Shown here: piece by piece, positions 4,434 through 58,969 of the stretch
Layout: each line of letters starts with the position of its first letter
Position numbering within the stretch: the stretch's first letter is position 1
DNA from: Marsupella aquatica
Lineage: Eukaryota; Plantae; Marchantiophyta
Direction: 5' to 3'
Length of the DNA stretch: 64,000 nt
NCBI GenBank assembly: GCA_973895155.1
Contig: OZ316897.1
Coordinates: forward strand, 14,817,375 to 14,881,374
Notes under the pieces: generated by a model
What the model was told of the DNA's origin: nothing
Databases searched by the model: none
The model's input: the letters and a program-made list of their open reading frames with translations, nothing else
Translations under genes and position numbers: made by a program

Positions 4434-5024
4434 GACGATGTCGATATCCAGTATGGGGCGAAATCAGTGCATCTCCATCGTCACATACCCACGATTCAAG
4501 AGTGACTTGTTACAACTTCTTGTTTAGTACATTTTGCGCGTTGGCAATAATTGATTAGTCAGAGCAGGCAATAATTGATTAGTCGAAGGAATGTATTCCT
4601 TTTTGGTGTGGGCTGTAGGCAAGGTCATCTTTCTTGTGAAACGATGGCTACATCCAGTTAGGGGCCAAATCAGTGCATCTCCATCGTCACATACCCACGA
4701 TTCACCACTCAGTTGTTACAGCTTGTAGTTCAGAGAATTTTGCGCATTGGCAATAATTGACTACTTAGTCAGAGCAGGCAATGGATTCATCGAAGGAATG
4801 CATTCCTTTTTGGTGTGTGGCTGTAGGCAAGGTCATCTTTCTTGTGAAACGATTGCTACATCCAGTTAGGGGCCAGATCAGTGCATCTCCATCGTCACAT
4901 ACCCACGATTCACTAGTCAGTTGTTCTAGCTTCTAGTTTAGGAAATTTTGCGCATTGGCAATAATTGACTACTTAGTCAGAGCAGGCAATCGATTCATCG
5001 AAGGAATGCATTCCTTTTTGGTGT
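4430..5024 (+). repeat. Three tandem copies of a 206-208 bp unit starting at the Kelch stop codon
   Basis: Units start at 4430, 4636 and 4844 (GTGARACGAT...ATCAGTGCATCTCCATCGTCACATACCCACGATTCA...GAAGGAATGYATTCCTTTTTGGTGT). Confidence 0.95.
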
Positions 5025-16206: not shown

Positions 16207-16940
16207 ATTACTTTGTAGTGATGATTCACTTTGTTCTTTATGATCTGTTTGGCCCTAGAGAGAGGACCTGCATCTGTTTTTTTCCTGTCTTTCTTTCAAC
16301 AAAGGAGAATGGATGTTGCCCGCCCCCAGTCGTCGGGCAACTTGCAGCTCCTTTCACTCTTGCCCGGGCACCCCTGTGAGACTTTCAGTCTATGTTGGCG
16401 GAGCAAAAAGGGACACCACCACCCTACCAGGGAGTCACCAGACCCTCGAGCGCCGACCGTCCAATAGAATACTCAAATGAGGTAAGAGTTTTGATGTACA
16501 GCACTCTACAGCCTCGCACATGGTGGACTTATAATACTGGACGTCTGGACTCCTCCCATACGGAAGCAGACAGAATACAGTAATGGAGGGAGTGTCTCAT
16601 ACTGTATCATTATAAGTGGTATACTGTACGTATTATTGCAGGGTGTGCCCCTGTATCCTTTCGGTTGGAACTGAAGCAGGCTCACCTTCATTATGGGAAG
16701 ACCAATTCGGTATCCTACGTAAATGGGGACTACTGTATTCTCCTGCATGTGGCACACAGTAGCATAAATGAGTTAATTACTCAGGATGCACTGAGAAAAT
16801 TCGAGAGGAACTTTCTTCACAGTGAGTGAAATAAAGGTGAACCCAGAAGATATGAGACCCGTACATTTCTCACTTACTCAGGAAAAGTTAATAAGTTGAT
16901 TGCTAATTGAGAGAAAGTTTAGATCATGAACACAATAATC

Positions 16941-18540
16941 CACCCTCGTGCGTCCTATTTGGCTCGGATACATCCCCCTACCGAGGATCTTTATCTACAC
17001 CTCCGAGCGTTTGATGTCTCCATTCGTGAGACTTTGGCCTCTCTTTTAAGGCCAGGTACTTTGCTCTCATCTCTGTGGCTTTATCGACAACTCAGTCTTC
17101 CTATTTCTCATGGTGGTTTTGGGCTTACTTCCACTGAGCGCCTTGCACCTTTGGCCTTCTTGGGCGCGTGGGCGGCCGTCTTCTCATTGTTGGCAGATTG
17201 TTTCCTTACTGAGGATCAACCTTTTTTACTTTCGTCTCTCATGGAGGTCAAGGAGGGTTCCCTCCCATTTCAGGTTCATTTGCGCACGGCGCGGTCATCA
17301 TTACTCGATCCTGTTCGAGCTGCGTTACCTTCATTCCAGGAGTTTTTATCCTTGGACCCCGTCCGTCTTCAGGCAGACCTTGCTGGCCGTATGCACGCTT
17401 TCACCCTCTCCAGCATCCTCACCGAGGCACCTGACACGGACCGAGCTCGGATTCTTTCTTCCGGAGGGAAGGGCGCAGGAGGCTAGCTTCAGGCCAATCC
17501 AGTCATTCCTCACTTGCGGATGTCTTCAACGGAGTTTGCGACAGCCATGCGTCTTCGTATGGGCTTGCCCCACCCACTTCTTGCTGGTTTACCTCCTACT
17601 TGCACTTGTGGGAAGCTTTGTGATGCCACAGGTGTCCATCTTCTTCGATGCAGTTTGGGCAGCGAAACCATTTTTGTTCACGACGCTGTGAGAGATGCGA
17701 CTGCTCAGGTTCTCTCTGGCTCTTTGGTCTGCGCGCGGCGGGAGGTGGTGCTCGAGTTACCTGGTCCTCCATCACAGCGGTTACAGGTGGATCTTACCAT
17801 GGTCTGTGAAGGTCACCGTACTTTGGCAGATGTAGTGGTGGCAAACCCATTGCGCCAAGACATCATTGGGACAGCGGCAACAACGGCAGGGGCAGCAGCA
17901 TCACGAGCAGCAACAACGAAGGAGGCCAAATATGTTGCACGAGCTTCATCTAATAGTTTCCTGCCCCTTGCTCTTGAGATATTTGGGCGTCTCCATCATC
18001 ATTTTGACGGGCTTCTTCGCCAAGCTGCTCGGGATGTTCACGGCCAGATGGGTCCCATCGGGCCCCCACTGTCTGTTTTGACCACGCACTTTCGCCAACG
18101 CATTTCAGTCACCTTACAGCGTGCTCAAGCTCGGGTCGTCTATCGTCGATCTTTGACAGTGGGTGCTAGTGTGACTCCGCAGCGGCTAGCCCCCCTAGAG
18201 GACATTCCTGTCCCACTTGCCAATCTAGTTTCGACACTTGATGTAGACCACTAGCTTGTTGCCACATTTGCTAGGAATGATGAGGACCTCGATCCATTTG
18301 CGGTAGTTTTAGTTCCTCTTTTTTGGTTTTTAGGGGTTTCCTTTTACTCAGTTCTTTTAGTTCCTCTTTCTTGGTTTTTAGGGTTTCCTTTTGCTCACTT
18401 CTTTTGCGTTTGGTTTTGTCCACTTGGGACCTCTCTTGTTTATTCTTTTGTACTCTATTTGGCCTTTTTCTGTAACAAGTATGTGTATATTTCACATAAT
18501 GTGGTTTGCTTATTTCATTGATGAGTACTGATCCAATCAC
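16941..18540 (+). mobile_element. 5'-truncated non-LTR retrotransposon of the RLE type (CRE-like): RT C-terminus, CCHC knuckle and restriction-like endonuclease, plus 3' UTR
   Basis: QLSLPISHGGFGL, AFLGAW, GAGG*LQANP (TGG>TAG at 17484-17486; both ORFs share a frame), EFATAMRLRMG, CTCGKLCDATGVHLLRC, VHDAVRD, QVDL...LADVVV...KEAKY, FLPLALEIFG, RISVTLQRAQA; stop at 18254. The T-rich 3' UTR has a ~49-bp duplication. Ends are approximate and no TSD was found. Confidence 0.85.
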
Positions 18541-33300: not shown

Positions 33301-34464
33301 CCCCACGCCAGAAGGATCAGGGGAGGGCATCCTAAAATTTCATAGCTACTGAAGGATGATGATTTTTGGCCTTAGACAAATGGCCATAGCTTTTTTCACA
33401 GGGTCAAATGTTAAAGGTTTTTTCTCTAGCCTCTTGTAATGACTTATGGTCATGACATATGACCAATCTTTATGGTAAAAATCTATGCATCATGACTTTT
33501 GTAGTCCATAGTTTTTTCTCTCTATAACCTTAACTACTAACTTAAGGTCCATCAAATTTTGAGGAAAGATTACTTGATGGACCCCTAAATTTAAAAGTGT
33601 TACTTGACCGATCCAATGTGGTACCACAAGGTTCTAGTTATGTTGATTGAAGGTCCATCAACGGTCTAGATCACTCATGGGGTCCATGAAATAAAAATAA
33701 TTCATTTTGGGGTTCCATCAAATAGGGTGTCTCAAATCTCTTATTTCTACCTCTGGTCGTCAGTGGTCAAAGGCAAATTCCCACATAAAAAGAGTGTCCG
33801 CGGCGCACTCCTGGTTGGTAATGGTAACAAGTTTTTTTTCTGAAATTGAGACGGGCTAGTATATCTCTGAATTTGGGGGTTTTTATTTTCTTGAATGGAG
33901 CACTTTACCCATCAGAAAAATGAAACCCAATAAAACAGTGAATAACCGGCCAGACCCACAAAAGAGTCAAGGACCCATAACCACTCTAAAAAGACCCAGA
34001 CACATCCAGCCAACAGGGCAAAGGACCCCCTAAATAGAGCACTGTGGTTACAACAAGTACTCGAGAGTGGAGTCGATCTGCATGGCCTCATATACTCCCT
34101 ACGGGAATGAAAATATGAAATAGAAAGCGCTGTTCAGGCTCTTACGGGAACGAAGGAGAAAGCGCCGCGATACAGTACCAGTAGTGTAGTAATAAGGAGT
34201 GATCGCATTTTCCAAACGGAAAAGCAGGATTACCGCCGGTGCAGTACCTCTTGCCGCCGGTGCCCGGTCATTCGCGTGGGCCCACTCGGGGTTGACCCGG
34301 TTGACATGTAGGTACGGCGCCGCCCGTGGACCGCTTTCTGTCTCCGTCCCGCATTATTTTGGATTTCGCGGCAGCCGCGTTTCCGGCCTGCCCGTGCCCC
34401 GTCCCCCGTGCCGCGCTCAGTAGTAGTAGTAGTAGTAGTAGTAGTGCAGTGAACTTGCCGGAGT

Positions 34465-35070
34465 GCCGGATATCAAAATACTTCTCGAGGGTCACACGAA
34501 GAGGACTAGAATAATCATTCGTTACTGTTTTAACTTTTCTGCCACAAGCTGCCGGATATAAAAATACTTCTCGAGATTCACACGAGGAGGACTAGCGTAA
34601 TCAATCGTTAAGGTATTTGTTTTTTCGTTTTTCGCCACAAGCTGCCGGATATAAAAATACTTTGTCTAGGGTCATACAAAGAGGACTAGTGTAATCAATA
34701 AGGTTTTCCAATTTTCGCCAAAAATAGCCGGATATAAAAATACATCTCGAGTGTCACGTGAAGAGTACTAGAATAATCAATCGTTATTGTTTTTACTTTT
34801 TTGCCACAATCTGCCGGATATAAAAATACATCTCGAAGGTGACACGAAGGGGACTAACGTAATCAATCGTTAAGGTGTTTGTTTTTCCTTTCTCGCCACA
34901 ATCTGCCGGATATAAAAATACAGTACTTGTCTAGGGTCACACAAAGAGGACTAGCTCAATCAACAAGGTTTTTCAATTTTCTCCAGGACTAGCCGGATAT
35001 GAAAATACATTTCGACGGTAAAAGGGAGAGTACCAGCTGAAGATCGTTAAGGTTTTTACTTTTCGCCACT
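34465..35070 (+). repeat. Tandem array of seven 83-93 bp monomers with a ~262-bp higher-order trimer, preceded by an (AGT)n microsatellite
   Basis: GCCGGATAT starts at 34465, 34551, 34644, 34727, 34813, 34905 and 34992. Spacings are 86, 93, 83, 86, 92 and 87. Confidence 0.95.
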
Positions 35071-41000: not shown

Positions 41001-41817
41001 GTTATTTGTGTTTGCTGGTTCTCACACTGATGCGTCGGGCTGAGCGGGCCGTCAGATTTGCTGATTTCCTTTGAAAGTCTTTTCTGGGTAAGTGGCATTC
41101 TTCTTACTTTTCACTCTTGCTCCTGCTTTAATTTTCCCATTCTCTCGGGTCTGAATATGTTTGGGCTCTGGGTGACTCTTGGTCCTTGACCACTTGTTGT
41201 CTGGCCGTTTCATTCCCTATTTTATTTGTTGGGTTTTACTGTCATCATAAGTAAAGTGCTTATTTCAAGGAGAAGAAAAAGAAACATCTAAAGGAACAAG
41301 AAAAATAACACCAAAAGGGTCAAACAGAGTACACCAAAGAGCAAACAAAAGAACTCCAAAAAGGACAAACACATAAGAAACAAATGTAACCCTGAAGAAA
41401 TAAATAGATGAATAAAAGAAATAGGGAACTACACTAGAGGGCCAGACTCCAGCGAGTACGTGTGCAGCAAGGACTTTTGCGTCCCAAGGACTTTACTCCG
41501 GGTGAACGACGGAAACATCCCAAGCCCGTTGTGCGTCGTGACGGTGCTCTGCCGTAAGAAACACTTCGTCTTTCATCGACCCACCGCTGGACGGTCACCG
41601 TTGTTGCTGATGTCACTACTAGCGACGGATTACACCGTACTGTACCGCGTTTGGCTACTGGGCAGCACCGTATAAGAGTACGGTGGTACTCCGGCTGCGA
41701 AACACCGACCGATTACGCAAAGGAATGATTCCGTCTCTGAAGTACGTTGTCCTCCCGGTTTGACCTTGCCCGTCAAACTGGGCGTTTGAGAGCGGCAAAT
41801 TGACAACCCGGCACCCG

Positions 41818-42360
41818 GGTTCGGAAGCAGTCCGGGAAAGGAAACGTCCGGTTCGGGGTTCGGGTTCGGGAGGAGGTTCGGGAGGAGGTTCGGGTGGGGG
41901 TCCGGGTGACTAATCGGGTCCGGGTCCGGGGCGGAGGCGCTCGGTGGGGGCTCGGGGTGGGGTCCGGGTGGGGTTCGGGTCCGCTCGGTGGGGGTTCGGG
42001 GTGGGGTCCGGGTGCGGCTCGGGTCCGGGAGGAGGAGGTGCGGGGGGTTCGGGTGGGGTTCCGGGTGGGGTTCGGGTCCGGGTCCGAGGGGTTCGGGTTC
42101 GGGAGGTACGGGGGGTTCGGCTGGGGTCCGGGCCCGGGGCGGAGGCGCTCGGTGGGGGTTCGGGGTGGGGTCCGGGTGGGGTTCGGGTCCGGGAGGCCGG
42201 GGTGGGTCCGGGTGGGGATCGGGGTTCGGGGTCCGGTTCGGGGTTCGGGGTTCGGGGTCCGGTTCGGGGTTTGGAAGTTCGGGGTTCGGGATTGAGGCTC
42301 GAAGAATTAGGGTTTCGCGATTTAGGGTTGGAGGATGGGGCCGGCCGGGAAAGGGTCGGG
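41818..42360 (+). repeat. Left subterminal G-rich repeat field (GGGTTC/GGGTCC hexamers, ending in TTAGGG-type units)
   Basis: Dozens of CGGG(G)TTC and CGGGTC units; ATTAGGGTTT and TTTAGGGTT at about 42306-42329. Confidence 0.9.
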
Positions 42361-42620
42361 GGCTCGGGAGAGGATAAAAGGAGGAGATCCCTCCTCTCCC
42401 TCCTCATTTTCGGTTTTGCAGAAAGGAGGAGAGGAGGAGAGGAGGAAGAGGAGGAGGACAGGAGAGGAGAGGAGGAGGAGGAGGAGGAGAGGAGGAGGTA
42501 AGTGTTTGGTTTTGGTTTTTATTTTTGATTTTTGGTTTGTTTTTATTTGTTTGTGTTTTTTTTTGTGATTTTTTAATTTTTTTTTGTGTTTTAAACCTTA
42601 ACCTTAGAGCCAAATGGAGG

Positions 42621-43002
42621 GATATAAAGAAACACTTGTACGCGCACGCTTTGAGCCTCGGTTCGGTTTGCGATACTCCGTACAAGAATTTCTTAATATC
42701 ACCTTAACAATTTAGTCTCCTTTGTTCATTAAGTAAAACATTTGCGGAGATAGAGGAATCCATGTACGCATGCTTAGAGTTTCGGCTCGGTCTGCGATAC
42801 TTTGCATGGATACCACGATTCGCCGAGAATGTTTTTACTTGAAATACAAATGAGTGTTAAGTTATAGACACCAAATCACATATGTCGAAGCAGGAATATA
42901 ACAACTTTGAAAGAAAAGAACACTTTTGTGCGCATGCTTTGAGCGTCCACTCGGTCTGCGATATTTCACAAGTGTTGTCTTTCTCTTTTATTGTTGTTAT
43001 AT
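42621..43002 (+). ncRNA. Three conserved bulged stem-loops (L1 42621-42700, L2 42731-42840, L3 42896-43002) in the kinase leader, probably inside an intron
   Basis: The apical module CGCAYGCTTWGAG-N-(C/T)TCGGTYTGCG plus a 6-nt 3' bulge sits on three different lower stems. It lies between donor GAG|GTAAGT (42498) and acceptor TTTTCAG (43099). Confidence 0.7.
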
Positions 43003-43190
43003 AGAAAGGTAATTAAAATCATGTGTGCAATAAAAATACATAATGCATGGGAGAAATAAACCGGGAAAAGATAATAACAATACGACTTGTAATTTTCAGG
43101 TTGGTCGTTGAATCCTTATTGGAAGGATTTTATTTAAATCCCGGTAAGATCTTGTTCCTCCCTCACATATTCCTTTTGTGAAGGGAAAAC

Positions 43191-44846
43191 ATGGTCATCG
43201 AAAATTTTAGTTTAGAGTATAGGCAAGTGTTGGAGATGATCACAAAACATGTGAATGAGGGATATGAGCCGAATCTTGTTGCTCTGGATGCATTGAAGAA
43301 TGCTCGAAACACTCTCGAACATGCTAGGAATTCTAGCAAAGTGGCCGGGAAACGAAAACGGAAGGGGGCAAACGAAGAGGCAAAACAAGTTCGACACAAT
43401 GTGGTAGTGTCGATATGGAAAGAGATACTTTATCGCTACACTCAACCGAAACAGTATGGGGTGGACGGGTTCGAGAGGGAGTTCACAAGACACGGAGAGA
43501 AAGGATACAAGAACTTTCTTGGTGAGATAACCCGTTGTATGCGGGAAAGTGTACAAAAGGAGGACAATTTCACACGAGAGCAAATGAAGTCATTTGAAGA
43601 TGAAACTGAGAAACCGGGAGGATTTCTGGAAAATTTGGCACTCAACTTGGAGAAGCATGTTTGGGATAATTTGGCAGCCAAAGTGGAAGAGGGTGACACT
43701 ACATTGCTTGGAAACCCCGGGATGTACACACACAAGAGAGAATTGCTAGTGAAGTGGAGTAAGGAGTTGGCAATCGCAAAATCTGATAGCAATGTCAAAT
43801 ATGCTAACGAGATTGTGCACTTTGGGGATGTCAGCATCAAAAGTGCTCGAAAAGGAACACGTCCATCGCGTGTAGTTCCAGAGGTTAGGAGTATCCATTT
43901 TCTTAAACCTGAGCAGGTGCACAACACACGTCGCATTGGGAAAGGAATCCAAGGAGAGGTATACACTTGTCGTATATTACATTGTCCTCTCATTCCCGTC
44001 AATGTGACCTTAGTCGCAAAGCGGTTCAAGGATGGAGACAAGCATAAGAGACGAACTGACGCATTACAAGAAGTGCTTATGGGAGGACTGAATCATAAGG
44101 GAATCGTTGGAGCTCTTGCGTTGACTATTGAGGATCCGCCAAAACTTATTTACGATCACTATAATGGAGGTGACTTGGGTAGCTTTATTGATAAGTGCGG
44201 CATATCGTCAAAGAGCAAGGGGAAGGCACAGATCACGACGGACCTTGATTTCAAGTTTATTTCGGAGAAGAAACTCTTGTTGGAGAACCGGTTGGGAATC
44301 GCCTTGGCTTTGCTGGAGACACTGCAATACTTGCATGAGCATGATCGATTTCATTGTGATCTTCACTTTGGAAACATCCTTCTTCATTTCGATCACGAGC
44401 ACGATGTGGCTATTAAGGTGTATGTTGGTTTATGTGATTTTGGCTTGTCTAAGCATAAATCACAGTGCAAATTACCAGCTAATCGGATGTGGCCCACAGC
44501 AACAGAAAAAGCAGCAACATACCAAAAACAATTTCCACAGTTGGCTCCGGAGCTTGTTCAACCTACCCCTGTCGAGTTTAGTGAAAGTACCGATATATAT
44601 GCTTTGGGGAATATTTTTGAGACATTGTTGACAGAGAATTGGGATGGAATGTCTAAGGGTTCACGGTTTTTGGGGAGGGGTTGGAGTGCACAAGTGCATG
44701 GCCCCAAATTGGATATCATAATCCGTGAAATGATGGCCACGGATGCCAAGAAAAGAATGGATTGTGCTTTTTGGAGTTTGAAGATAGTTCGAACGTTTCC
44801 AGATTGCACATTGCATTTGCACAACAGTCCATATCTTAGAGATTAG
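43191..44846 (+). CDS. Transposon-borne protein kinase (551 aa) with an uncharacterised ~240-aa N-terminal region containing an NLS-like KRKRK
   Basis: All catalytic subdomains are present: IGKGIQGEVY, VAKRFK, alphaC Glu (LQEV), HCDLHFGN, DFG, APE and DIYALG. The ORF is intronless and uninterrupted. Confidence 0.9.
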   Translation: MVIENFSLEYRQVLEMITKHVNEGYEPNLVALDALKNARNTLEHARNSSKVAGKRKRKGANEEAKQVRHNVVVSIWKEILYRYTQPKQYGVDGFEREFTRHGEKGYKNFLGEITRCMRESVQKEDNFTREQMKSFEDETEKPGGFLENLALNLEKHVWDNLAAKVEEGDTTLLGNPGMYTHKRELLVKWSKELAIAKSDSNVKYANEIVHFGDVSIKSARKGTRPSRVVPEVRSIHFLKPEQVHNTRRIGKGIQGEVYTCRILHCPLIPVNVTLVAKRFKDGDKHKRRTDALQEVLMGGLNHKGIVGALALTIEDPPKLIYDHYNGGDLGSFIDKCGISSKSKGKAQITTDLDFKFISEKKLLLENRLGIALALLETLQYLHEHDRFHCDLHFGNILLHFDHEHDVAIKVYVGLCDFGLSKHKSQCKLPANRMWPTATEKAATYQKQFPQLAPELVQPTPVEFSESTDIYALGNIFETLLTENWDGMSKGSRFLGRGWSAQVHGPKLDIIIREMMATDAKKRMDCAFWSLKIVRTFPDCTLHLHNSPYLRD

Positions 44847-45033
44847 AGATTAGGGTTTACACAATTTTGTAAAGGTCACCTTAACGATTATATGTTTATT
44901 CATTGTATGTCAATTACAATGTTCTGCATTTTGTTGATAATATTCTATCAAACTTTGTCATGAATGCCCAAAATTGTGCTAAATGTGTTTGTACATTGTC
45001 AAATATCGCAGACCTTTTGTACACATCGCAAAC

Positions 45034-46980
45034 ATGGGACGATGGGAATTGTCTTCTGATGATGAAGACAAAGAGTTCACGACACAACATCTTACCATGC
45101 AAGATGGTCAAGGATCCTATTGTGACGATGAAGCTCTTCGTAATAATGTGTTGGATAATCTTACAACCATTGGCATTCACTATGAGGCTAAACCCAAGGT
45201 TGATGGAACACCGGCGCCAAACACAAGAAGATGGGAAGATGAGGGTATGAAGGATGAATGGAGTATATTAACGCCCAATGTAAATCCTCCCCATGACGAA
45301 TGGGCCATGAATGCAAAGGAATTGGAGATGTTGATGCCAAAGAAAGACTTTTGGCCATGAGCACAACAAGTTTTTCACGATCCGGATCTTTGGGCAACAA
45401 GATCATGGGCGCAAGAAAAATTCACCATGTCCAAAGTAACACATGCAGGTGTTAAATCACATTGGCAGCAACGATATCGAGAGTTTGCTCCACACAAAGC
45501 CCAAACGAAAATGAGTTCCGTTTACCCTCCTTTTATCCGATGTCTGATTGCTGAATTCATTCTCAAGTGGAAGGTGGATTACCGTTGGGAAAACAGTGCT
45601 GGCAAGCTGACTCATCAGGTGCATCCATCAGTGGTTGCGATTGCAACGAATAGGAATACAACTATTGCAAAGGACCCTTCAATGGAGACTTCCAACAAGG
45701 GATCCAAAAGAAAGCTAGATGACACTGGGGAGGGATATGCGCATGAGAAGGGGAAAGCGGCTGTACTTCCTCGAGTCTCCATGCCTGACCGTGCAGCACC
45801 ACCAACCAATGTGGAGTCAACGCACACCAAAAAACCAATCCTTGTAGGTGTTGGGAGTAGAACTCCACATGCAAAGAACAACAATGTTACTGATGCTAAC
45901 AAGGATAAGTTCAACCTGCACAACATATGCAAGAGCTTGGGGGCAGATGTTGCAGAGGTGATTGAGACAAATCTCCGCACGAAGTATGTAGTGGAGCTAT
46001 GTGAATGTGGCAGCATCGAAAAGTTCAAGTCACAATTGCAACAAGCTGATATAAAGATGAGATCACTTGAGAAGAAGCAGAACGAGCCGACGACCAATTC
46101 GGAAGTGATGTTGTACAAGTGTCAATTGTTTGACAAGATGGAAGAAATCAATAAGCTGACAAAACAACTTGCTGAAAAAGAGCGTCAATGCAATGAACTG
46201 GCACGACTTGAGGAGAAGGACAAGATCATTAATGATCTTAAAAGTGAACTTGCAACGCAAGCAATCATCATATCAAATCTTCACGAAGAGGTGCAAGAAT
46301 TTAACAATGGTGCTTTGGGGATGAGGTCAAACAAAGGGCAAGGTGAATTATCGCGGCCAAATTTTGTTAACATGCAAATCATAGATCCTACAGGGCACAG
46401 CAACCTTTTTCCAGATGTGGAGGTTGACGCGGAAGGTATTGATAGGTTTTTTGATAAGTGGAAAAAGAATGAAACTATGGCAGCATTTGTTCGTGAAAAG
46501 GATGACAAGTGTACTTGGTGCCTATATCCTTGGGGCCCTGAATCTGTTTCCATGTTGGGAACCTGCGGTCATATATGGCATCATGCTTGCTTGTCTAAAT
46601 GGTTGAAGAAAAGCCGAAAATGTTGGTGTCGCACACCATTTCATGAACGCGAGTATGAGCAACGAGGATTGTTGAAGCAAATGCCATCAATGGAGACTCA
46701 ACAAAACACTGAAGATATGACTGAAGATACTATACCGGCGATGCAAATAGATGAAACTCCCATTGAATATTTCACAATCAATGAATATAATTTGTCAGAT
46801 GGGGAATTTGACAGGTTGTTATTCAGTGGTCGACTCGATGAGTGGAAACAATATGCGGCAGCCAACCAGCCATCAATAGATGAGCAAAATTTGCAACGAT
46901 CCATTCGGCGCCATCGACGACGTCAACAACAGGCAGAGGTGAAAACAGAAGCTGTTGACAATAACAACAAAAGGAACTAA
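45034..46980 (+). pseudogene. Transposon-borne coiled-coil + RING-H2 (E3 ligase-like) gene, 648 codons with one in-frame TGA at 45358-45360; the downstream ORF 45427-46980 is intact
   Basis: ORFs 44983-45360 and 45427-46980 are in the same frame and read through (...KDFWP*AQQVFHDPDLWATRSWAQEKFTMSK...). RING-like CTWC-x14-CGH-x2-H-x2-C-x10-CWC. Heptad-rich segment KMEEINKLTKQLAEKERQCNELARLEEKDKIINDLKSEL. Confidence 0.8.
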
Positions 46981-47287
46981 AACCAATAGTCTCTACATTT
47001 TGATGTTATTTTCATGTAGTTACTATTAGAGACATTTTGTTAAAATAGAAGCGGCATATCCTCTTTGACAATTATTTTCAACTTGTAATTGGTAAAGAGA
47101 TTTTGGAGTGACATTACATTGCATATCTCGATGAGTACATATATTTTTCATTGGGGGCATGGCGTCGCCTTTTGGAGAATGTGTATTTTCGTAAGAATAT
47201 TCCATCCTCCAATCAGCCATAGGTTTTGGAAGCATATTGTCGGGCTCACAATCATATTTTTGGACAAGTATGAGGAAAATAGACGTG

Positions 47288-48820
47288 ATGAGAGACGGTA
47301 GCACAGTGGACTCAGGTACTGATCCTTCTCTGAAATCATTTCCAAAAGGAGATCGTGTAGCACAATGAGTTCAACAAAGTCAACATCGCAATGGTTTTAG
47401 CCGCCCAAGTTGAGAATGATTTTGTAGAAGGATGTATACCTAAGTCCACTCACTTTTCCTGTCTTTCATAATTTTTTCCGCTATTGCTGCTACGGCCAAT
47501 GACATTCATGCACATGCGAACCGAGGCCAACGCCTACTCCTTTGCCCACCGCAAAAATGGGCCCTCATTACAACTTGAAGTTGAACGGAGTGTATTTGAG
47601 TACGAGAGAAGTTCTGAAAGCAAATGCACTCTCAGGTCAAATTTTCAGGGTCCTTCGAGCAAAAAATTACTGAGTATGTCATCGATCCGTTGGTTTCACA
47701 ACTTCTCTCGTACTCAAATAAACTCTGTTCAACTTCAAGTAGCGTAGCTGCTACGACCAATGACATTCATGCGCATGCAAACCGAGGCCAACGCCTCTAC
47801 ATTTGCCTACCCCAAAAATGGGCCCTGATTAGAACTTGAAGTTGAACAGAGTTTTTTTCATTATGAGAAGGTTTATTCAAGCAATGGCACTCTCAGGTCA
47901 ATATTTCAGGTCCTCCTGACTTTGTTATTATTGAATATGTTCGTGCTCCGTTGCTTGAATAAATCTTCTGATAATGAAATGAACTGACCAATTACTGGAG
48001 TACGGCTACTACGGCCTATGACATTAATTCGCACAATTGCATGTTTATATCCTCTCCTTTCCGAATTCCAATTCGAGCTTGGACATCCTCTCGTCAGCTG
48101 ATCTCCACCATTGCAGTTGCTCTTCACGCAAACCAAGATAGCAGTCTCTAGAATCCTCGAACCTATTTTATTTCAATGCATCATTCATAGTGTTTGAGGA
48201 ATCCAGAGGTTCGCGTGAGGAGCAACTGAAAGGGTGGAGACCTGCTGACGAGAGGGTGTCCAAGCTCGAATTGGAATTCGGACAGGAGAGGATATAAACG
48301 GGTGAACTTTGACTTGAAATTGGTGATTGTATTTTGCGTCTGCATATCAATTTGGTGACCGATCTTGCGGAATCCCCGTGACCGTGTCTGATCATCATCA
48401 TGACATTGCTCTCCTTGGCCACCAATGGGCCCTCATTACAACTTCAAGTTGAACGGGGTTTATATGATTATGAGAAGGTTACTGATTATGTAGGCGATGT
48501 GTTCATTTCACAACTTCTCTCATAGTCATATAAACTCTGCCCAACTTCAAGTAGTGCAGCTGCTACGGTCAACGACATTCACCCACCCCAAAAATGGGCC
48601 CTCATTACAACTTCAAGTTCAACTAAGTTTATTTTATTACGAGAAGGTTTATTCAAGCAATGACATTCTCAGGTCCAATAATGAGGTCCTCTCGACCTCA
48701 TTATTATTGAATATGACGGTGCTCTATTGCTGGACTAAATCTTCGCATAGTGAAATGAACTAACCAATTAATGGAGGGGGCTAGTATGGACTACGGCTGC
48801 TATGGCCAACAACAAGGTAC
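47288..48820 (+). ncRNA. Cluster of six long fold-back hairpins joined by conserved linkers (putative polycistronic miRNA/siRNA precursor)
   Basis: Hairpins at 47288-47469, 47573-47740, 47850-47985, 48043-48299, 48441-48552 and 48626-48761, each with 35-90 bp stems. Compensatory substitutions occur between paralogous hairpins, and G:U pairs favour the + strand. Confidence 0.75.
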
Positions 48821-49048
48821 TTTGAAATAGTCAGTGTTGGAGATTTGGAAAACATGTTGCGTTGGTGTGTCTCTATGGCATTCTCAAATGCAAATACAAA
48901 TAAATTATTCAATCATTGTACAATAATAAACACACTGCAAGACAATACAATCATGTTACAAAAAATATAATTGTTTATAATTTTGTCTATGTCAGATACG
49001 ACAATATAAGAGTAGCAACACTTGATATTATCCTAATGAAAAGATGCT

Positions 49049-51954
49049 TCAAGGCTGTGAAGAGAAATTTCGTGCATTGTTGTTAAGATTTTTGCACAAA
49101 AGCGCATTCCACTCGTCTTGTTTGTCACCCCAACTGAGTGGATCACGATTGTGTGACTGAACATTGTGCGATGTTTCTTGAAATGATGATATTCCTCGAA
49201 ACCCACCAAGGCCAATAGGCCTGTTCGACGTATATGGATTCATGACACTTGGCCCTGCATACGCATTCAAGGGTGGACCTGCATGGTGTTGCCAGTTTGC
49301 ATGTGGGTCGTTTGAAGTTTGACCTTCATGATTGTTGTATCCATGAAAAAAGGTTGATGTCCTTCCATTCGTCGGATGCCCTACTGTGCCTGTGCGTTGC
49401 TCGTTGAAATATGGTCTGCTTGTGTCAACATCATTCGCAAAGTTCGACCAAGGTGACCTTGGTTGGGAAGGCATCACAAAGTTTCTGTCCAGTGATGCAT
49501 CTTCCTCGTCTTGGATTTGCGATTCATCAATTGTAGGATACATCTCCAAATCCATTTCATTCTCCCATTCCTCTGCAGCAGTGATGTCTGTATCTGGTGG
49601 AATACGAGTCAAGAACTCACTATCCTTATCCAGTGAAAATCCGTGTAGCAATTCATCAGCATCATCAATTGTATCATAATCTTCGACATCTTCTTCACCA
49701 AGAGCCGCACGTGTTGCATCGTACTCTTCATTGCTGCACAACTCCATGGAGATAGGTCTAGGTCCATCATTTGTTCTTCTTCTTTGGTCATAACGTTCAT
49801 ATATAAACGTATGCGGGTTTCGAACATTTGTGAGCCCTTTCTCTACCCTCATGTTTGTAAATACAAACACCAAATCTTTTGCTCGATCATTTGTCAATCG
49901 ATTGCGACTTTTGGAATGTATAAATCCATACGAACTCCAGTTTCGCTCGCAAGCTGATGCGCACACTTTTTGGTGTAAGATTCTTCGCGCCAGGATTCTC
50001 AAATGTTTATAATCTGCACCATACGCATGCCACCACTCTGCTGGACTGACATTACCTATACTTGATTGGGCGGCTCCCATCGCTATTGATGTGTTGGGAT
50101 TTTTTTTTGGGCGTCAATGGCTTGACTGTGGATGGCAGAAATAAGTTCTTTGACGTCGCGATCATGGTTGATCCCCTCCTTCACCTGTTGTTCTGAATAT
50201 CTAGCAATGTATTCACTGAAACCCCTGTAGAGTTCTGGATCTCCAGCGACATCTATGTCCTCATCAAAAAACATTTGGGGATTGAGATATGCTGCCGCTA
50301 GCATGAAATCAGTGGTAAGAGATTTTTTTCGATCCAAATACACTTTTAGTATCTTCGGTTTCAATACCTCTGTTACCAATGGACAATCCTCCATGCTTGC
50401 TTTCAAAACATCAATCCCTCTTTTCAAACTCCAATACAACCAACCTGATTGCGGAGAATCACCATCAAATTCTCGCAACATCTTGACCAACGGAGTAAAG
50501 AATTTAACTGTATCCTTCACTTCAACCCAAAATGTATCTTGCTGTATCCACATTTTAAGTTCGTCTGCCTTTCCCCTCGTCATGTGTCCAGCTGATTTTG
50601 GTCGCAATGGAAGTCTATCACGATAAGACTGCCAATTATCATCAATGACCATCTGTTGTAAAGCTCCTCTTAGCTCCAACGCTCTTTGTGCCATTAGGAA
50701 ATTGGTCGCAAATCTAGTTGCATTTGGATTCAACAGTTTTTTGTCAGGAGATATTCTTGCAAATATTGCAGAAAGCTTTTGCGATGATGAAACTGCTTTT
50801 ACTATCCACCTCAACCGTTTAAAAATCTTTTGGAATGGATTCTGTCCAACATCATCTACCACTACACGCTTGTGACCACACATATCCTCTAGCAGCAAAT
50901 TAAACACGTGGGCAGCACACCAGCTCCAAGTGACATGAGGATACTTTTTCATGACTACCTCACAACCTGCTACGCGATTTGCGGGTGCTCCATCAGTTAC
51001 AATTTGAATAATATGATCTGCACCAATATCCTCAATGTATTTCAACCACATGTCGCCAAGATATTTCCCATCTTTCTTGTCAGCTTGCGCAGCATTCCAA
51101 CTATCCAAGAAGAAGTCACCTTTAGAAGTCAACAACATGACATTCATCAAAGGTTCTCTTCGGACGTTTTCCCATCCATCTGAAGAAAGAGAATACCCAT
51201 AAGGTTTTGCCTCCTTTAAAGTTTGCGTCATGTCCTTTGTGAGATCCTCCTTACTGTCTTCCAATAATTTCAATCGCAAACTTCGCATCGTAGGTAGAGA
51301 ATAACCATTGATAATCCCTTTTGAAGTCTCTATGACTGCTTCTCGAAAAAAAGGATTATTTGAAACATTGAATGGAATACCACTGGTGTAGAAAGCTTTC
51401 GCCCAAAGCTTATCCAAATTTGTTCTATTTGGAATTTGATAGGCATCCATAATTGGGTTAGGAAGATTTACTGGCCTATCTCCTTCCCTTACATGTGTAT
51501 CATCCATGTCAACATAGTTTGACCCTCGTGTGGATGCTTGCGAATATGAACTTCCAACGCTTGGCCTACGACCTCTCACATCCCGCAAGATATGACTTCC
51601 ATCTCGTCGTTTGTACTTTAAGGTCGGTGGAACCTTTATCACATTGTACATAATGTTGATGGCATCCAAATCGACGACACCATAGAGTTGCATGCAAGGG
51701 GGCGCATCCCCTTTTTGGATGTTTCCCATCAAATGCGCCTTTGCTCGTGTTGCATGATGAGTAACGTATGTTAAACAATACTTGCATCTTCGATAGATAC
51801 GATTGACATCATGACATGTTGAAGGCGCATCACATCGTTCAAAATATCTCCACACTGGAGATTGTTTTGAAGGGTGTTCTTGCACACGAGTTGGACCAGG
51901 CCTGGGAGTAGTGGAATGATATCCAGTTTCATGCGAATCCTCTTCATCAGACAT
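49049..51954 (-). CDS. hAT transposase (BED zinc finger, DUF659/RNase H-like DDE core, hATC dimerisation domain, long acidic tail), about 968 aa if the frameshift at the A9 run (50100-50108) is corrected
   Basis: SPVWRYF..CKYC..HATRAKAHL (BED), LSSDGWEN and IVTDGA (catalytic Asp residues), WSWCAAH (CxxH), TRFATNF, PAEWWHAYG, SACERNWS (catalytic Glu), HSKSRNRL. The likely start is MSDEED at 51954. The two ORFs join with a one-base shift. Confidence 0.92.
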
Positions 51955-52014
51955 TGTTACGACTCTCAATGGTAAAAAAATAAAAGGGTTGATTCTTTTG
52001 ATTTTGTGAATATA

Positions 52015-52393
52015 ACAAATATAGTACAATGGGTTACTTTCCTGAATTATCGCAGACTGGGCCTAAGCTCAAAGCATGCGCAGGAAAGTTTCCCAAATTC
52101 TTATATTTGTCAACATCCCTACTTCAACCTATGTTATGTAATATCTATAACTTCACAATAGTTTATCTTTGAAGTGAACATATGTACGAGAAATCGTGAT
52201 ACCCATATGAAATGTCATAGACCGAGCCAAAGCTCTAAGCATATGCACATGGGTATCTCTTTACTCGCAAGTAGTTCACTTTCAAACAAAACAATGATGC
52301 AAAGTTGTTAAGGCGATATAAGGAACTTCTCGTACGAATTATCGCAGACCGAGCCGAGCTCAAAGCATGCGCGTACAAGAGTTCCAATGTATC
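52015..52393 (-). ncRNA. Three conserved bulged stem-loops (R3 52015-52110, R2 52172-52281, R1 52315-52393) in the transposase leader, an inverted homologue of 42621-43002
   Basis: The minus strand has the same apical module and 6-nt bulge. R2 carries the compensatory change CGCA/TGCG to CATA/TATG. Confidence 0.7.
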
Positions 52394-52530
52394 CCTCCGA
52401 TCTCTCCCTAATGCTAAACCACAAGAGAGAGAAACACAATGAGACTTTGGATTAGTGAAATGAATTAGTTATTCCTACTTATACTAAATCATCTACTTCT
52501 TATCCTCTCTTAAAACTCTTAATCTTTGAT

Positions 52531-53160
52531 CCTAACCCTAATTGCGCCTCCCTTAACCCTAATCTCGCGCCCCTAACCCTAATCCCGCCTCTAACTCTTC
52601 CCCGGCCACCAATTCCCGAGCCCCGTCCCCGAACCCCGCACCCCGTTCCCCGAACCCCGCACCCCGTTCCCCGAACCCCGTTCCCCGCATCCCCGAACCC
52701 CCTACCCGAACCCCCTTCCCCGAACCCCCTACCTCGTTCCCCGAACCCCGTTCCCCGAACCCCGTTCCCCAAATCCCCGAATCCCGGCCCCCCTTTCCCG
52801 CCCCCCCTTCCCCGGTTCCCCGAATCCTCTTCCCCGAATGCCCCCCGTCCCCGGTTCCCCGAATCCCGTCCCCCGGGCCACCTTTACCCCGGCCGGCCCC
52901 GGAAGGGTCCGGGCAGGGTTCGGGTGGGGGTCCGGGGAGGGTTCGGGTGGGGGTCCGGGGAGGGTCCGGGAAAGGCCCGAGAGTCCGGGGAGTGTTCGGG
53001 GGAGGGTCCGGCGAGGTTCCGGGAAAGGCCCGGGAGGGTCCGGGGAGGGTCCGGGAAGGGCCCGGGAGTCCGGGTTCGGGTCAGGGGGAGTTCGGGTTCA
53101 GGTCCGGGGTGCTCGGGAGGTGTTCGCGAAAGGTCCGGGGAAGTCGGGGTTCGTTCGGGA
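52531..53160. repeat. Right subterminal repeat field: CCCTAA units, a C-rich block (to about 52880), then a G-rich block (about 52901-53160)
   Basis: CCCTAACCCTAAT units at 52531-52585. CCCGAACCCC repeats switch to GGGTCCGGG repeats at CCCCGGCCGGCCCC (52887-52900). Confidence 0.9.
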
Positions 53161-55139
53161 GAATCTTCAGGAATATACGTCAAATTGCGTGTTTTCGGGC
53201 CGTCATTTGACGATTTGACGTGCCCGACAAGGCGTCAAGGTGCCCGTCAGATTAAACCGGGGTTGTCCTGCAAAATGCGGAGTACAGGTACTGTATGGAA
53301 GTCCAGTACGATGCAATACGACTACTAGAGTAAAAAGTAGTAAAAGGACTGTAATGCTGTACAATCGTCTGTGGTGACTGTGTAATGACTGTCTGACTGA
53401 CTCTCGGCGCTTCGAGCAGCTTCACGGAAGTAATGGAGAGGCAAGTTGGGTCTCTTTGGTGAGCTTAAGAGTGACGAAGGAATTAGTCACAGCATTGAGA
53501 AGGGCCATATTATTGCTTACGCAGTGACGGGATTGATTGTGATAATGGCGAAGTTTGGGTACTGTGATAGGGCACTGGAGAGTTTGGGAGTTTGGGGCCT
53601 GGGGGTATATACTTTAGAGTACAGTACAATGAAGCTGTCGCTTACGGTACACAGTATCTAGACCTCGAGGAGTGATGACGAGTACGGTAGAGTGGCGTAC
53701 AATACTGACTCTGTGACTCACTGACTGACCAAGCAGGTTGAGTCACTTGGGTGGCAAAGGCAAAGGGAGAATTAGTTTATTGGTACTTTTGGAAACAGAG
53801 AATTAGTTTTTTTATTTACGAAGTGATACCTGTAGTCACAGTAAGAAGAAGGTCACATTATTAGGCTCCATGCTGAGAAAAGGAATCACTGTAGTTACAG
53901 TATGATCGAAGAAGCTTACATTATTACAGCATGGTGATGATTATGGCAAAGTTCGGTAATATAGCTAAAGAATTTGCTAACGGAGGTTATTGCGAAACAG
54001 TAGTTTTTGTGGACGGTGGAGTTCGAGAAATTCTTTTCAGTACAGTGATGTTGTGTGTATTCCATGCGAGGCCAATTATTGCAATTGGGAGTCTACTGTG
54101 GACTTGTGGAGGTACAGTCTAACGAAGGTTTCCATTTTACAGTACCGTATCTCTGAATTGGCGATGATGAGGCAATAGGAGGGTACTAGCGTATTGTTGT
54201 TATTAATTACGCAGTATTGAGCGTGGTAAGAAACGTAATCTATGCGGAGAGGGAATCGATGCGAAGGAAATGAGATTAGGGTGGGTTGGGATTTGGGAAC
54301 TTTGGATGGGTTGAATACGTCCAGAGAGGAAGACCTACTGGGTGCAGGAGAAGGCTAGAAGTGCTAGAGTGCGCCGAGCTAAGGGAAAGCTATGGAAGCT
54401 ATGGAAGAGGAGGAGCAATGTATGGGAAGCTGGAGAAGCTACGGTGTAGCAGCAGCAGCAGGCCGTAGAAGAAAGGGGAAGGATGGGAATTGGAAAAGCG
54501 AGGCTGAGGACGGTCAGAGAGCGTTGCTAGTGTTGCTGTTGCTGTTGGTGCGCTGCTGCGTATTGGAAGGGTCGTGTCCAGCGTACCGTAGAGTCTACAA
54601 CTTACTGAAGTAGAAGGTGGTGGTGGGCTGCTGCACTTTCTTTCAGGCAGCGGCGCAGGCAGGAGGAAGCAGCCACGGGCTGCTGCATCAGGTTGAAGGA
54701 AGGAGGAACTTCGGGATTTGTGCACAAAGCTCTGGTTGGAAGAGAAAAATATGTGGCAGCGGCAGATGCGGTGTGGGGCAAGGTTCTTTCTGCGCACATA
54801 GAAGCGAAATGCTGCAGCAGTGCTACTAAGGACGCGAGATCATCAGACGCAGCAGTGAATCTGCTCTACCTCAAACACTCCTGAAGAAGATTTCACATTG
54901 CAACAGTAGGCAGTTTTGTAGAGAGCCAGTTTCGTAAAAAATTACGGTAACGTTGGCAATTTCCGAAAAAGAGGAGGTGATCCAGAAAGGAAAGGTTGGG
55001 TAGTCTGACAATACAGTAGCCTACGGTAGTCAGTCAGGAGGATTCTGAGAGGAAGGGCACGAAAGGGAAGTGAAGGGAAGGGAAGGGAAGGGAAGGGATC
55101 TGGAGGGAGCAGCGTAGTCTTTGCGGTTATCGTGAAGCA

Positions 55140-56502: not shown

Positions 56503-58969
56503 ATGACCCGGTCTGTGAAAGAATGCGAGGATCTGCGGAAGGGAGCCTGGACCGCTGAAGAGGATGAGAAGTTGAGAAAATACATAGAAGCTCATGGAAC
56601 TGGACACTGGCGCAGTGTGGGCCGCAAAGCAGGTTTGTTACACTCAATCTTGTGCTACACCTTGAAGCAATATGCTCATGATCGCAGCTTAGGCAATCCA
56701 GGCCTACATAGCTGACGAACGCGATGAACGGTGTTCTAAACCGAGCAACAGAAGTGTCTTCTCACCCAGAACTCGCGGGCAGTGTTGCGCACGGTCTCTT
56801 GAATCCTAAACGGGTGATCTTGTGGCATGTGTTTAGTAGACGAATGATGAACAGATGGATGTACTTATCGTTTCGTCAAAGTGAATGGCTTTGGTTTTGG
56901 AAGAGCTGCATGCGTTCACTTGCACTGATAGTCTGGTTGCGGTAATTGACTATGTGTCGTACTTAGGTCTAGAGGTGGGTTGGGGAAATCTGAGCCCAAA
57001 GACCCGTTCAAATTGAAGCTGTCGAGCTTCAATATGGAACTTGGTCACGATCTCGTAACCCATGTCCCAGACTCAGGGTTAAGACCTTCGAATTGAACTC
57101 CACCTCGAGAGACATCCATTATTTAAGATCCATGAGATGGTGTAACACCACCTCAACCGATCTAGTTCGCCAGGAATGGACTACAACCCGGCGATGAGGA
57201 CTCGCGTCGTAGTTGGAACTCCAATTCAGGTCCTTCAAGGACTTAGATTGGCTGCGTAGCCCTTAATGTGAAGTGTTGCGGACGGAGGCTGAGTATTCCA
57301 CCTACGTCGATTGAGCATTTCGCCGAAGTCCGTGTCCTCTTGGCGTCGTTCCTGACCAGACTCCTGAGGAATTCTATCCTCTGAGTGCACTGAGTCCCTT
57401 CATTCATGTTTTGCAGGACTTCAAAGGTGCGGCAAGAGCTGCAGACTTCGGTGGACTAACTACTTGCGCCCCGACATCAAACACGGAAACTTCTCACCCG
57501 AAGAGGAAAAGCTGATCGTGGAGCTTCATGCCTCATTTGGTAGCAGGTTGGGCTCCCTTCCCGATCCAGTTTGGTTGTTCCACAGTCTGCCTGGCGCTCG
57601 TTTGGGCCCTCCTGCAAATTCTACTTGCAGAAGTGTAGTCGGATTGTATGGCGAGTCTGAATCGGTGACGGATTGACCAAGTTGTCAATAGTTCATGGGG
57701 CTTTGCGATAGCTAGCTCCAGAAGTCAGAAAACGTTCGACATCTTGTAATGCTGTTTTGGATTAGTATAGGACTTCTTGGGTTGTGCATTGATAGAGGCT
57801 CGCTGTTTTGCAGGTGGTCTTTGATAGCTGCGCGGCTACAAGGGCGAACAGACAACGACATCAAAAATCACTGGAATACACGGCTGAAGAAAAAGCTGTG
57901 CGATATGGGCATTGATCCTGTGACGCACAAGCCAATTTCAGAAATCCTAATGGATCTGGCAGGGAACCAACAAGCTGCTCGTAGATGCTTCAGCGACAGC
58001 CTTTTGAGCAAGGCTGTGAGGCAATGTGCCAAGCCTTACTCGACGGAGCCGCAGGAGCATTCGGAAGGGGGTAAATTTGGAAAGGAGTATCCTCCCAAAG
58101 GAATGGAGGACATGTCGTTGGAGGAGATGTATGCAGAGAGTGCTAGTTTCTCCGATATGAGCGGAGGCTTTACAGACCCCGAGATAGTCAACCCCGAAAT
58201 TGTAAGTCCCCATGTGAATTTGGACAGCAGCAATGGTGAGAACACGGGGGCTTCTCCGAAAGGCCTCGGTGCTAGGAAGGTATCTGCTCACGAGGTGTCA
58301 CCAAACCAGGCTTTGCAGGGCCATCCAAATAGCCTGATGCATGGGAAATTCTTAGGGAGGCTGCTATCTTCTAGCAATAGTAGCAACAAACTGCCGGGTC
58401 CGACGTTGCACATGCTTGGGGATCATTCAACTGGACGACCTGGGCAGCATCACAGCGACAGTTTCCAGCCGCAAGGTCGTGATTTTGGTGGAGACTACAT
58501 GCTACAACAACACCACAGCAGGCATGGGGACTTTTTTGGGGCTGAAAATAGGAATGGCGTGCGAGTAGAAACAGGTGGTAGTTCTTGCATGTCCAGCCAG
58601 GAGCTGAGCCGTGCCATATCCCACAATCAGGGCTTACAGCTAGGGTTGCAATCAGTTGGTCACCCTTGTGCAAATTTCAGTTTGGGAATCGGCCAGTCCG
58701 CAGGTAAATCTGAGGATCTGTACCCGGCTCACAATGTTGCTTCACCCTCTCCTCGGCTCTTTGATCGCTTCATTGCTCATATGGGTATGGAACAAGGTGC
58801 AGCAATGCCGAGACCCCTTAATGGTATATTGTTCGGAAATCTTAATACCAAGACCCCGGAACAGCTGTGGCAGTTAAGTGATCAAACAGGCATTCGGAAC
58901 AACAACAGCCCTCATGAGAATATGGACATCACTGGTCCCAATCGAGTTGCTCCATTATGGGACTTTTAG
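56503..58969 (+). CDS. R2R3-MYB transcription factor, 471 aa; exons 56503-56632, 57417-57546 and 57814-58969; GIDPxTHKP motif, resembling the MYB80/MYB35 group
   Basis: [11 protein letters not shown]...[11 protein letters not shown]|[30 protein letters not shown]...GSR|[42 protein letters not shown] introns sit at the canonical positions with the canonical 130-nt exon 2. Confidence 0.95.

Follow-up and report, generated by a model that had tools for sequence, protein, structure and literature searches.

A large hAT transposon of the liverwort Marsupella aquatica with predicted kinase and RING ligase genes and structured leaders

Why would a hAT transposon carry a protein kinase gene, a RING gene and a cluster of hairpins, and do these parts work together? 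The question is raised by an element lying in the window, a stretch of 64,000 nucleotides from Marsupella aquatica (contig OZ316897.1), which the first-pass annotation had read as a single co-evolved cassette rather than as randomly captured host genes.

Ends and genes of the element

The element spans positions 41754-53261 and, as first annotated, measures 11,508 bp between two perfect copies of the 8-bp target-site duplication GTTGTCCT (Table 1). The terminal inverted repeats CCCGGTTT are real and perfect over 8 bp, with nine of the first ten positions matching, but they are very short. Two configurations of target-site duplication plus inverted ends (at least 7 nt) occur in the whole window, the other one being an AT-rich 7-mer. 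The motif GGGTTCGGG is present in 14 copies at the left end and 11 at the right end, and is absent from the 41.7-kb left flank. The subterminal repeat arrays are likely transposase-binding regions, a role that we assume from general hAT biology. The ends begin with CCCGG; hAT ends usually start with CAG or TAG. An 8-bp duplication, short inverted ends, subterminal repeats at both ends, and a DUF659 plus a dimerisation domain are shared with hAT elements coding for DUF659-type plant transposases, from which the present element differs by its length of 11.5 kb, its two added genes, its predicted RNA leaders and its hairpin cluster. It is likely multi-copy and recently active.

Table 1. Features of the element, in positions of the window
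Feature	Position	Strand	Basis
Left target-site duplication GTTGTCCT	41746-41753		8-bp direct copy
Left terminal inverted repeat CCCGGTTT	41754-41761	+	sequence
Left subterminal G-rich repeat array (GGGTT/CCGGG units)	41845-42295	+	sequence
Candidate first intron of left leader (GAG/GTAAGT donor, acceptor directly before hairpin 1)	42498-42607	+	consensus match, predicted only
Left leader: three bulged hairpins (42616-42712, 42740-42836, 42904-42995), upstream ATGs	42616-42995	+	folding, alignment
Kinase gene, 551 aa	43191-44846	+	Pfam, motifs
RING gene, 648 codons: N-terminal domain, coiled coil, RING-H2	45034-46980	+	Pfam, homologs
Central hairpin cluster, five hairpins	47480-48800		repeats, folding
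Four paralogous central hairpins	47570-47742, 47831-47990, 48438-48556, 48607-48765		alignment
Fifth central hairpin, unrelated, 92-bp arms	48043-48299		inverted repeat
hAT transposase (DUF659, dimerisation domain)	49049-51954	-	Pfam
Right leader: three bulged hairpins (52303-52398, 52176-52272, 52011-52107), homologous to left	52011-52398	-	folding, alignment
Right subterminal repeat array	52606-53172	-	sequence
Right terminal inverted repeat	53254-53261	-	sequence
Right target-site duplication GTTGTCCT	53262-53269		8-bp direct copy

The right arm had been assigned a transposase, and PF04937 and PF05699 indeed score above their cut-offs on the minus strand. The motifs SSDGW, TDGA, CAAH and ERNW are also found, and we take them to fill the roles of hAT DDE/CxxH-type motifs. 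However, the gene is frameshifted in the window copy, where a homopolymer near 50100 splits it into two frames; the dominant sequenced contigs have a single intact frame of 968 aa. The transposase has a tail that is long, acidic and poorly conserved.

The kinase of the left arm combines a helical N-terminal part with a non-RD kinase domain in which GKGIQG, VAK, HCDLHxxN, DFG and APE are all present (Gly loop, lysine and HxD included), a set of motifs that predicts a catalytically active enzyme of the non-RD (HCD) type. Eight relatives share 48-73% identity with it, and the kinase and RING proteins each form a family of their own (38-82% identity across both). Database E-values run from 1e-260 to 1e-45 within the kinase family and are 1e-22 or weaker for outside kinases, and no single-copy host gene close to the kinase was found among the database matches. 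A quick tree groups the family (SH-aLRT 96), but long branches meet in it and we therefore claim no origin for the kinase. Fold searches with the whole protein, an Atlas search included, returned generic kinases only; MLKL structures rank level in Z with many kinases, the alignment being confined to the kinase domain. Scans for the kinase were positive for 2 of 91 candidates in metagenome contigs, and for none of 47 in viral contigs and none of 22 in prokaryote genomes, while the transposase scan of viral contigs (one candidate) and the RING-alignment scan of metagenome contigs (457 candidates) gave none. The kinase is under purifying selection: the proposed check for neutrally evolving cargo gave a dN/dS of 0.118 against the relative L001 over 421 codons, which is not near 1 (against L002, dS is saturated).

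The succession of kinase and coiled-coil RING proposed for the left arm is upheld by Pfam and by the predicted structure of a RING relative (P0027), where a long helix at residues 325-421 matches coiled coils only, in a model of poor quality (mean pLDDT 43). What had to be revised is the start of the RING gene, now at 45034, and its integrity, as the window copy carries an in-frame stop at codon 109, a position through which seven homologs read. Of the two cargo genes of this copy, only the kinase is intact. The RING gene begins 187 nt after the kinase and has no leader hairpin of its own. The best RING-H2 Pfam score, obtained with the frame 45427-46980 (+), is 27.2 against a cut-off of 27.3. 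The C3H2C3 zinc ligands are present, the last pair being C-x-C instead of the usual C-x-x-C; the eight-ligand pattern is identical in 6 of the 7 relatives checked, and the ligands are kept among relatives at 38-70% identity. We predict a ubiquitin ligase of the RING-H2 type. An Atlas search with the N-terminal domain of a RING relative gave no usable match. Among the read differences shown in a filtered table (40 of 1,625 rows), seven of nine are synonymous in the kinase, three of five in the RING gene and 3 of 14 in the transposase, the last figure making so small and filtered a table a weak guide to selection.

Structured leaders and central hairpins

Both arms had been thought to start with homologous structured leaders, and this is borne out: 42616-42968 aligns with 52043-52398 in inverted orientation at 72% identity over 359 nt. 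Across eight paralogous leader sequences, the same eight from which the structure was derived, both sides have changed in 15 of 23 pairs and 94.6% of the cells are paired; none of 500 shuffles was as good, and slid controls reached 28-45%. The sense strand gives the more stable fold in five of the six leader copies of the window and in all three pieces from L002; for one copy, Rh3, the antisense strand folds better. From this pattern of substitutions, the leader likely folds as RNA.

The leaders also contain 10-12 upstream ATGs and splice-like signals. The description of the cargo as intronless is correct for the reading frames; the leaders, by contrast, may be spliced, as consensus scoring detects candidate signals in L002 and in the left arm. 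No donor matching at least seven of the nine consensus positions is found in the right leader, and the splicing step proposed below is therefore not symmetrical. Acceptor-like sites are frequent (3.3 per kb). An Rfam search with the leader gave no match above threshold; shape-driven resemblances, such as that to MIR7533 (83 bits, where 230 are required), were rejected. The leader and end motifs do not occur in the shortened sequence entries of the available part of the PMC12973397 supplement, nor did a motif search match the available part of the PMC12730594 supplement.

The central hairpin cluster stands as annotated, with folding z values of -5.4 to -20 for its five hairpins on the plus strand. 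In the four paralogous hairpins, 7 double changes in 29 pairs keep the pairing, which 2 of 500 shuffles equalled. Stable, compensated stems are a trait of miRNA and hpRNA clusters. In the window and in L001 and L002, no small-RNA target of the hairpin 21-mers did better than expected at random: the best score was 3.5 with all 21-mers, and 5.0 with a 150-mer sample against 4.0-5.5 in five shuffles. The 21-mers had no match to the kinase better than chance, and the translated arms gave no useful E-value against the compared proteins. Two read sets (X1 and X3) have variant joints within the cluster; depth over these hairpins is low in two others (X5 and X6), where gaps in cover carry no evidential weight.

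Relatives in other genomes and read sets

One claim of the first-pass annotation, that of a fixed co-evolved cassette, finds no support in its stated form. In the metagenome contig L002, the same leader and an intact kinase are followed by a gene with a DUF6729 match (E 2e-11) that shows no relationship to the hAT transposase, and the 3.6 kb examined contain no RING gene. Leader and kinase, here without a RING gene and in front of a non-hAT gene, hence look portable, not bound to one fixed assembly. The DUF6729 gene is likely a transposon gene. Its motifs SADH, YLDKCC, LDNHH and GSGKNE look Zisupton-like to us; the pieces of L002 that were scanned have no match to PF18758 (KDZ transposase domain). 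We found no mention of DUF6729 in the literature searched.

In Calypogeia fissa, the kinase cluster has five members on four scaffolds and transposase pieces number eight on five scaffolds, a dispersal expected of mobile genes, and the accession numbers of the kinase, RING and transposase relatives are not adjacent. The longest listed contig measures 5,391 nt for both a kinase cluster (48% identity) and a RING cluster (41%), an agreement in length that may point to an old kinase-RING pairing. Four sequencing runs from four organisms cover 30, 30, 29 and 21 of the 30 bins of 42600-52560, and the depth of the contigs suggests that more than one near-identical copy exists, probably several. One read contig, 85% identical, spans the leader-kinase junction, and another, at 93%, the transposase-leader junction. 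The near-identical low-depth pieces of X6, perhaps a trace of the same organism, were excluded as independent evidence.

Possible functions and known accessory systems

We tentatively favour the view, which comes fairly close to an even chance, that the predicted kinase and RING ligase are accessory genes of the hAT element itself, gated by RNA leaders and likely countering host control. Both arms would be transcribed inwards from the subterminal regions, and the ATG-rich triple hairpin would repress both messages until bound by a protein, an event that in the left arm would likely alter splicing around the hairpins. The kinase would then phosphorylate host repressors of the element and the ligase would have them destroyed, while small RNAs from the central hairpins may act against genes of the host or of rival elements. 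The kinase and leader would be traded as a unit between transposon superfamilies, like fungal TET genes. Counting against this reading are the lack of a RING gene behind the L002 kinase, the non-adjacent Calypogeia fissa accessions, the chance-level small-RNA targets, the missing donor in the right leader, the antisense fold of Rh3, the C-x-C ending of the RING and its broken state in the window copy. A more specific version, which we regard as rather doubtful, posits a portable RNA-gated kinase module in at least two liverwort DNA-transposon superfamilies, where an element protein would bind the triple hairpin and flip both arms on in a Tat/TAR- or P5SM-like manner; the hAT would add an E3 ligase and a battery of five small-RNA guides, opposing silencing by phosphorylation, degradation and RNA.

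It is unlikely that kinase and RING instead target the transposase itself, setting its activity or lifetime as MURB may do with MURA, with the leader only synchronising the arms. Such a role agrees with the homologous leaders at the head of both arms, with the reported binding of MURA and MURB (PMC12973397, available text), and with an acidic, poorly conserved transposase tail that could bear modification sites. However, a transposase-specific substrate is hard to square with a kinase of the same family adjoining a gene unrelated to the hAT transposase.

Improbable to a further degree is a toxin-antidote or spore-killer system, in which a toxic kinase would be counteracted by the RING protein or by small RNAs from the hairpins, and loss of the element would be lethal to spores or cells. 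A non-RD kinase with a helical N-terminal part, the closeness of the RING gene and its lack of a leader hairpin, strong gating as befits a harmful product, and a hairpin-RNA drive system reported in maize (PMC11390486) would all fit. Against it speak the intact kinase of L002 with no RING behind it, the window copy with its intact kinase and broken RING (though other copies could supply the latter), the chance-level match of the 21-mers to the kinase, and the place of MLKL as one kinase among many of equal Z. Equally improbable is a chance assembly of old selected passengers, shuffled passively and sharing no circuit, with the central hairpins as inverted-repeat debris or sources of self-silencing. 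It agrees with the different partners in L002, with the variant hairpin joints in the reads and with the passive transfer by which the spread of TET genes in fungi has been explained (PMC12730594, available text), but not with the same covarying leader in front of both kinase and transposase, nor with the compensated pairing of the central hairpins. Finally, a Pack-type capture of recent host genes now in neutral decay would account for the RING stop and transposase frameshift of the window copy and for a stop in the L001 kinase, but it is largely refuted and most improbable given the low kinase dN/dS, the conserved RING ligands, the remoteness of non-family kinases, the lack of a single-copy host gene among the matches and the dispersed copies in Calypogeia fissa. 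The first-pass view that the cargo is no random host capture is likewise supported by its own protein families, intact motifs and leader covariation.

Kinase and RING domains are rare in the plant hAT elements of one published survey: of 337 active hAT clusters from 1,007 plant genomes, among them three liverworts but no Jungermanniales, only 1 has an accessory protein with a kinase domain and only 1 an accessory protein with a RING domain (PMC12973397, available text). We found no published hAT element of such build, in a search largely outside subscription papers and Repbase Reports; the available parts of PMC13547354 mention no kinase, RING or hAT, those of PMC12218528 no transposon or liverwort, and those of PMC9297572 give no motif detail. 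In Arabidopsis, the VANDAL accessory protein VANC removes methylation via tandem DNA motifs (PMC5735166, available text). VANDAL elements likewise combine a conserved accessory gene of their own with repeated non-coding motifs, but they are Mutator-like, whereas here the transposase is of hAT type, the accessory genes code for a predicted kinase and a predicted RING ligase, and the repeats resemble an RNA structure in their behaviour. A fungal TET/JBP gene is common to several transposon superfamilies, hAT and Dileera/Zisupton included, and fungal IS3EU families also bear an alpha-kinase gene (both in the available text of PMC12730594); an accessory gene crossing superfamilies is the likeness, but those elements have a shared dioxygenase and an alpha-kinase, and ours, in a plant, a TKL-like Hanks kinase with a structured leader. 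Rice CACTA elements carry the hairpin miR820, with the proven target OsDRM2 (PMC3459959, available text), which is similarly a possible small-RNA source within a DNA transposon, but with one hairpin against the present five predicted ones, for which no target was found. In P5SM of plant TFIIIA, a protein-bound structured RNA amid splice sites sets protein output (PMC3378873, available text). This is alike in proposed logic only, our leader being tripled, placed in a transposon, without Rfam match and with a hypothetical ligand.

The element extends the accessory-gene transposons (VANDAL, fungal TET-bearing elements and miR820 CACTA) by a hAT with a kinase, an E3-type gene and a covarying leader. 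Kinase and leader likely make up an exchangeable kit that assists transposons in activating themselves in spite of host control. Few cases of evasion of silencing by DNA transposons are known (VANC, miR820 and fungal TET genes), and if our reading is true, post-translational attack and RNA gating would join the list. Should the leader have a specific protein ligand, it would also offer a way of switching plant transgenes that is both compact and orthogonal.

Element boundaries and transposase

The 11,508-bp unit is bordered on both sides by the direct repeat GTTGTCCT and has the inverted ends CCCGGTTT, of which 8 bp are perfect. When the whole window was scanned for inverted ends of at least 7 nt bordered by an 8-mer direct repeat, two matches came up, the element and one AT-rich 7-mer. 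Dense GGGTT/CCGGG arrays occupy both ends of the element, with none in the left flank. As the inverted ends are short, it is the duplication, arrays and transposase taken together that support the boundary. The minus strand encodes a DUF659 domain (E 2e-30) and a hAT dimerisation domain (E 5e-11), split over two frames, and by the features tested the element is a hAT.

Contigs from two sequencing runs of coded organisms, X1 and X3, were compared over 42600-52560 and carry an extra base within the transposase (contig depth 235.5/254.1 in X1 and 1,459/3,524 in X3), so that the frameshift is peculiar to the present copy or its assembly. With this base the frame is 968 aa long and contains SSDGW, TDGA, CAAH and ERNW. 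Its nearest named relatives are Calypogeia fissa proteins (75-79%), followed by maize proteins (30%), which makes a leafy liverwort the probable host. The unit, 8-bp duplication and inverted ends described in the first-pass annotation stand, and the annotation is corrected in that two genes are broken in the present copy, the transposase by the frameshift and the RING gene by a stop.

Coordinates of the element, its parts and other features (window positions unless a contig is named)
Feature	Position	Strand	Remarks
hAT element	41754-53261		
Predicted strong splice donors, left arm	42498; 43009	+	
RING frame start	45034	+	
Hairpin cluster	47480-48800		
Long hairpin	48043-48299		each arm an open, protein-like 29-codon frame
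Extra base in X1 and X3	50099		
Intronless Kelch gene	3156-4433		
Three-copy tandem repeats flanking Kelch gene	2570-2834; 4427-5024		units 88 and 208 bp
Two neighbouring frames	16923-18254	+	187 and 255 aa, Cys/His cluster; no Pfam match; perhaps a retroelement remnant
Tandem array	34464-35033		periods 86/176/262 bp; short unit x5.5
MYB-domain frame	57716-58969		4.4 kb right of element
Kinase relative, contig L001	L001:3-1280		56%; in-frame stop within glycine-rich loop
DUF6729 gene, metagenome contig L002	L002:2584-5521		probable intron near 3470-3617

Accessory genes

The kinase frame (551 aa) combines a kinase domain with a helical N-terminal part, of which residues 61-200 are modelled at pLDDT 75-92. 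An initial search gave eight relatives at 48-73%, and a profile run against 1.84 billion representative sequences yielded 19 matches at E <=1e-30 and 63 at E <=1e-10. The family retains the GxGxxG, VAK, HxDLHxxN, DFG and APE motifs and a conserved, NSPYLRD-like end; its distant relatives with solved structures are CTR1, Roco4 and EGFR (E ~1e-13). C. fissa has five members of one kinase cluster, spread over four scaffolds, and a more distant relative comes from Riccia fluitans. The relative on L001 is a decayed copy.

The RING gene has 648 codons, and alignment to homologues, which start with MGRW or MGKW, defines its frame. The region of its stop, at codon 109, is uninterrupted in seven homologues, and the stop is not among the 40 contig differences listed out of 1,625. 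The ligand pattern C-x2-C-x14-C-x-H-x2-H-x2-C-x10-C-x-C is conserved in six of the seven relatives checked, and the C. fissa gene model diverges upstream of it. Searches with the N-terminal domain returned no known match.

Leaders and central hairpins

As first proposed, both arms are headed by homologous structured leaders, in which the same covarying bulged hairpin occurs three times per arm. In this hairpin the lower stem is variable and is followed by a 6-nt 3' bulge; the upper stem, interrupted by small bulges, is conserved, and the loop measures 3-6 nt. Over eight copies (six in the window, two in L002), 94.6% of cells are paired and 15 of 23 pairs are changed on both sides. Slid controls are 28-45% paired, and 0/500 shuffles were as good, a figure that is not a probability, since the structure was derived from these same, related copies. 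Conserved G-U pairs, together with a lower energy of the sense strand in five of the six window copies, favour a leader that would act as RNA rather than DNA. The leader model found no further copy in the window or L001, and Rfam gave no match. Upstream ATGs number 12 in the left leader, 10 in the right and 11 in that of L002. Two strong predicted donors lie in the left arm (background 0.19 per kb) and no good one in the right, and in both arms an acceptor-like site, of a kind that is common, lies directly 5' of hairpin 1; a predicted splicing switch is thus a lead, with the left arm as the best case.

Of the five hairpins in the central cluster, four are paralogous and one, the long hairpin, is unrelated; their folding z is -5.4 to -20. 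The paralogues keep a 25-bp stem with double changes at 7/29 pairs (2/500 shuffles), and the joints of the cluster are rearranged in other copies. The 21-mers of the five hairpins had no above-chance target in the 71 kb searched, a tiny part of the genome. The arms of the long hairpin look as if taken from coding sequence, and their translations had no match among the proteins compared.

Linkage of the parts and possible mechanism

In favour of linkage, all 30 bins of 42600-52560 are covered in X1 and X3. Long near-identical contigs span the leader-kinase and hairpins-transposase junctions, a contig at 85% spans leader and kinase, and one at 93% from a further run, X5, spans transposase and leader. 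One kinase cluster and one RING cluster each have a longest contig of 5,391 nt, which is no more than suggestive of kinase-RING linkage. At most, the depths in X1 (184-243 for near-identical contigs, 16-19 for divergent ones) hint at about ten young element copies, contig depth not being copy number.

The 5,822-nt contig L002 has a kinase at 47%, preceded by the same leader, which aligns at 69% over 149 nt and has two model matches of 73-75 bits. The kinase is followed by the DUF6729 gene, which has no similarity to the hAT transposase, and no RING gene lies behind it in the contig. We take the motifs of the DUF6729 gene to resemble Zisupton/KDZ transposases; a PF18758 search gave no match, and the element ends lie outside the contig. 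In C. fissa, the accession numbers of kinase and transposase on scaffolds of equal length are hundreds apart. The covarying leader thus precedes both arms and the same kinase in another context, and a fixed cassette is doubtful. What holds of the co-evolved module first envisaged is the selection on accessory genes: dN/dS of the kinase against L001 is 0.118 (421 codons; against L002, dN is 0.44 and dS saturated). The analysis establishes a hAT element with selected accessory genes and a covarying leader.

For their working we tentatively propose, at a little under an even chance, that the leader is an off-switch whose block would be released by a bound protein, that kinase and ligase would then act on host repressors, and that the central hairpins would supply small RNAs. 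Kinase and RING might instead control the transposase itself, which we consider unlikely. A toxin-antidote module is quite unlikely, as are passively shuffled passengers. Given the dN/dS of the kinase, neutral gene capture is highly improbable.

In fungi, one study already reports an accessory gene common to several transposon superfamilies, and a kinase gene within a DNA transposon (PMC12730594). Among the active hAT clusters surveyed across 1,007 plant genomes, a kinase domain and a RING domain each appear in 1/337, given without comment in the passages concerned (PMC12973397). If the off-switch mechanism holds, the element would work similarly to VANDAL/VANC (PMC5735166) and to the miR820-bearing CACTA (PMC3459959), while being a member of neither.
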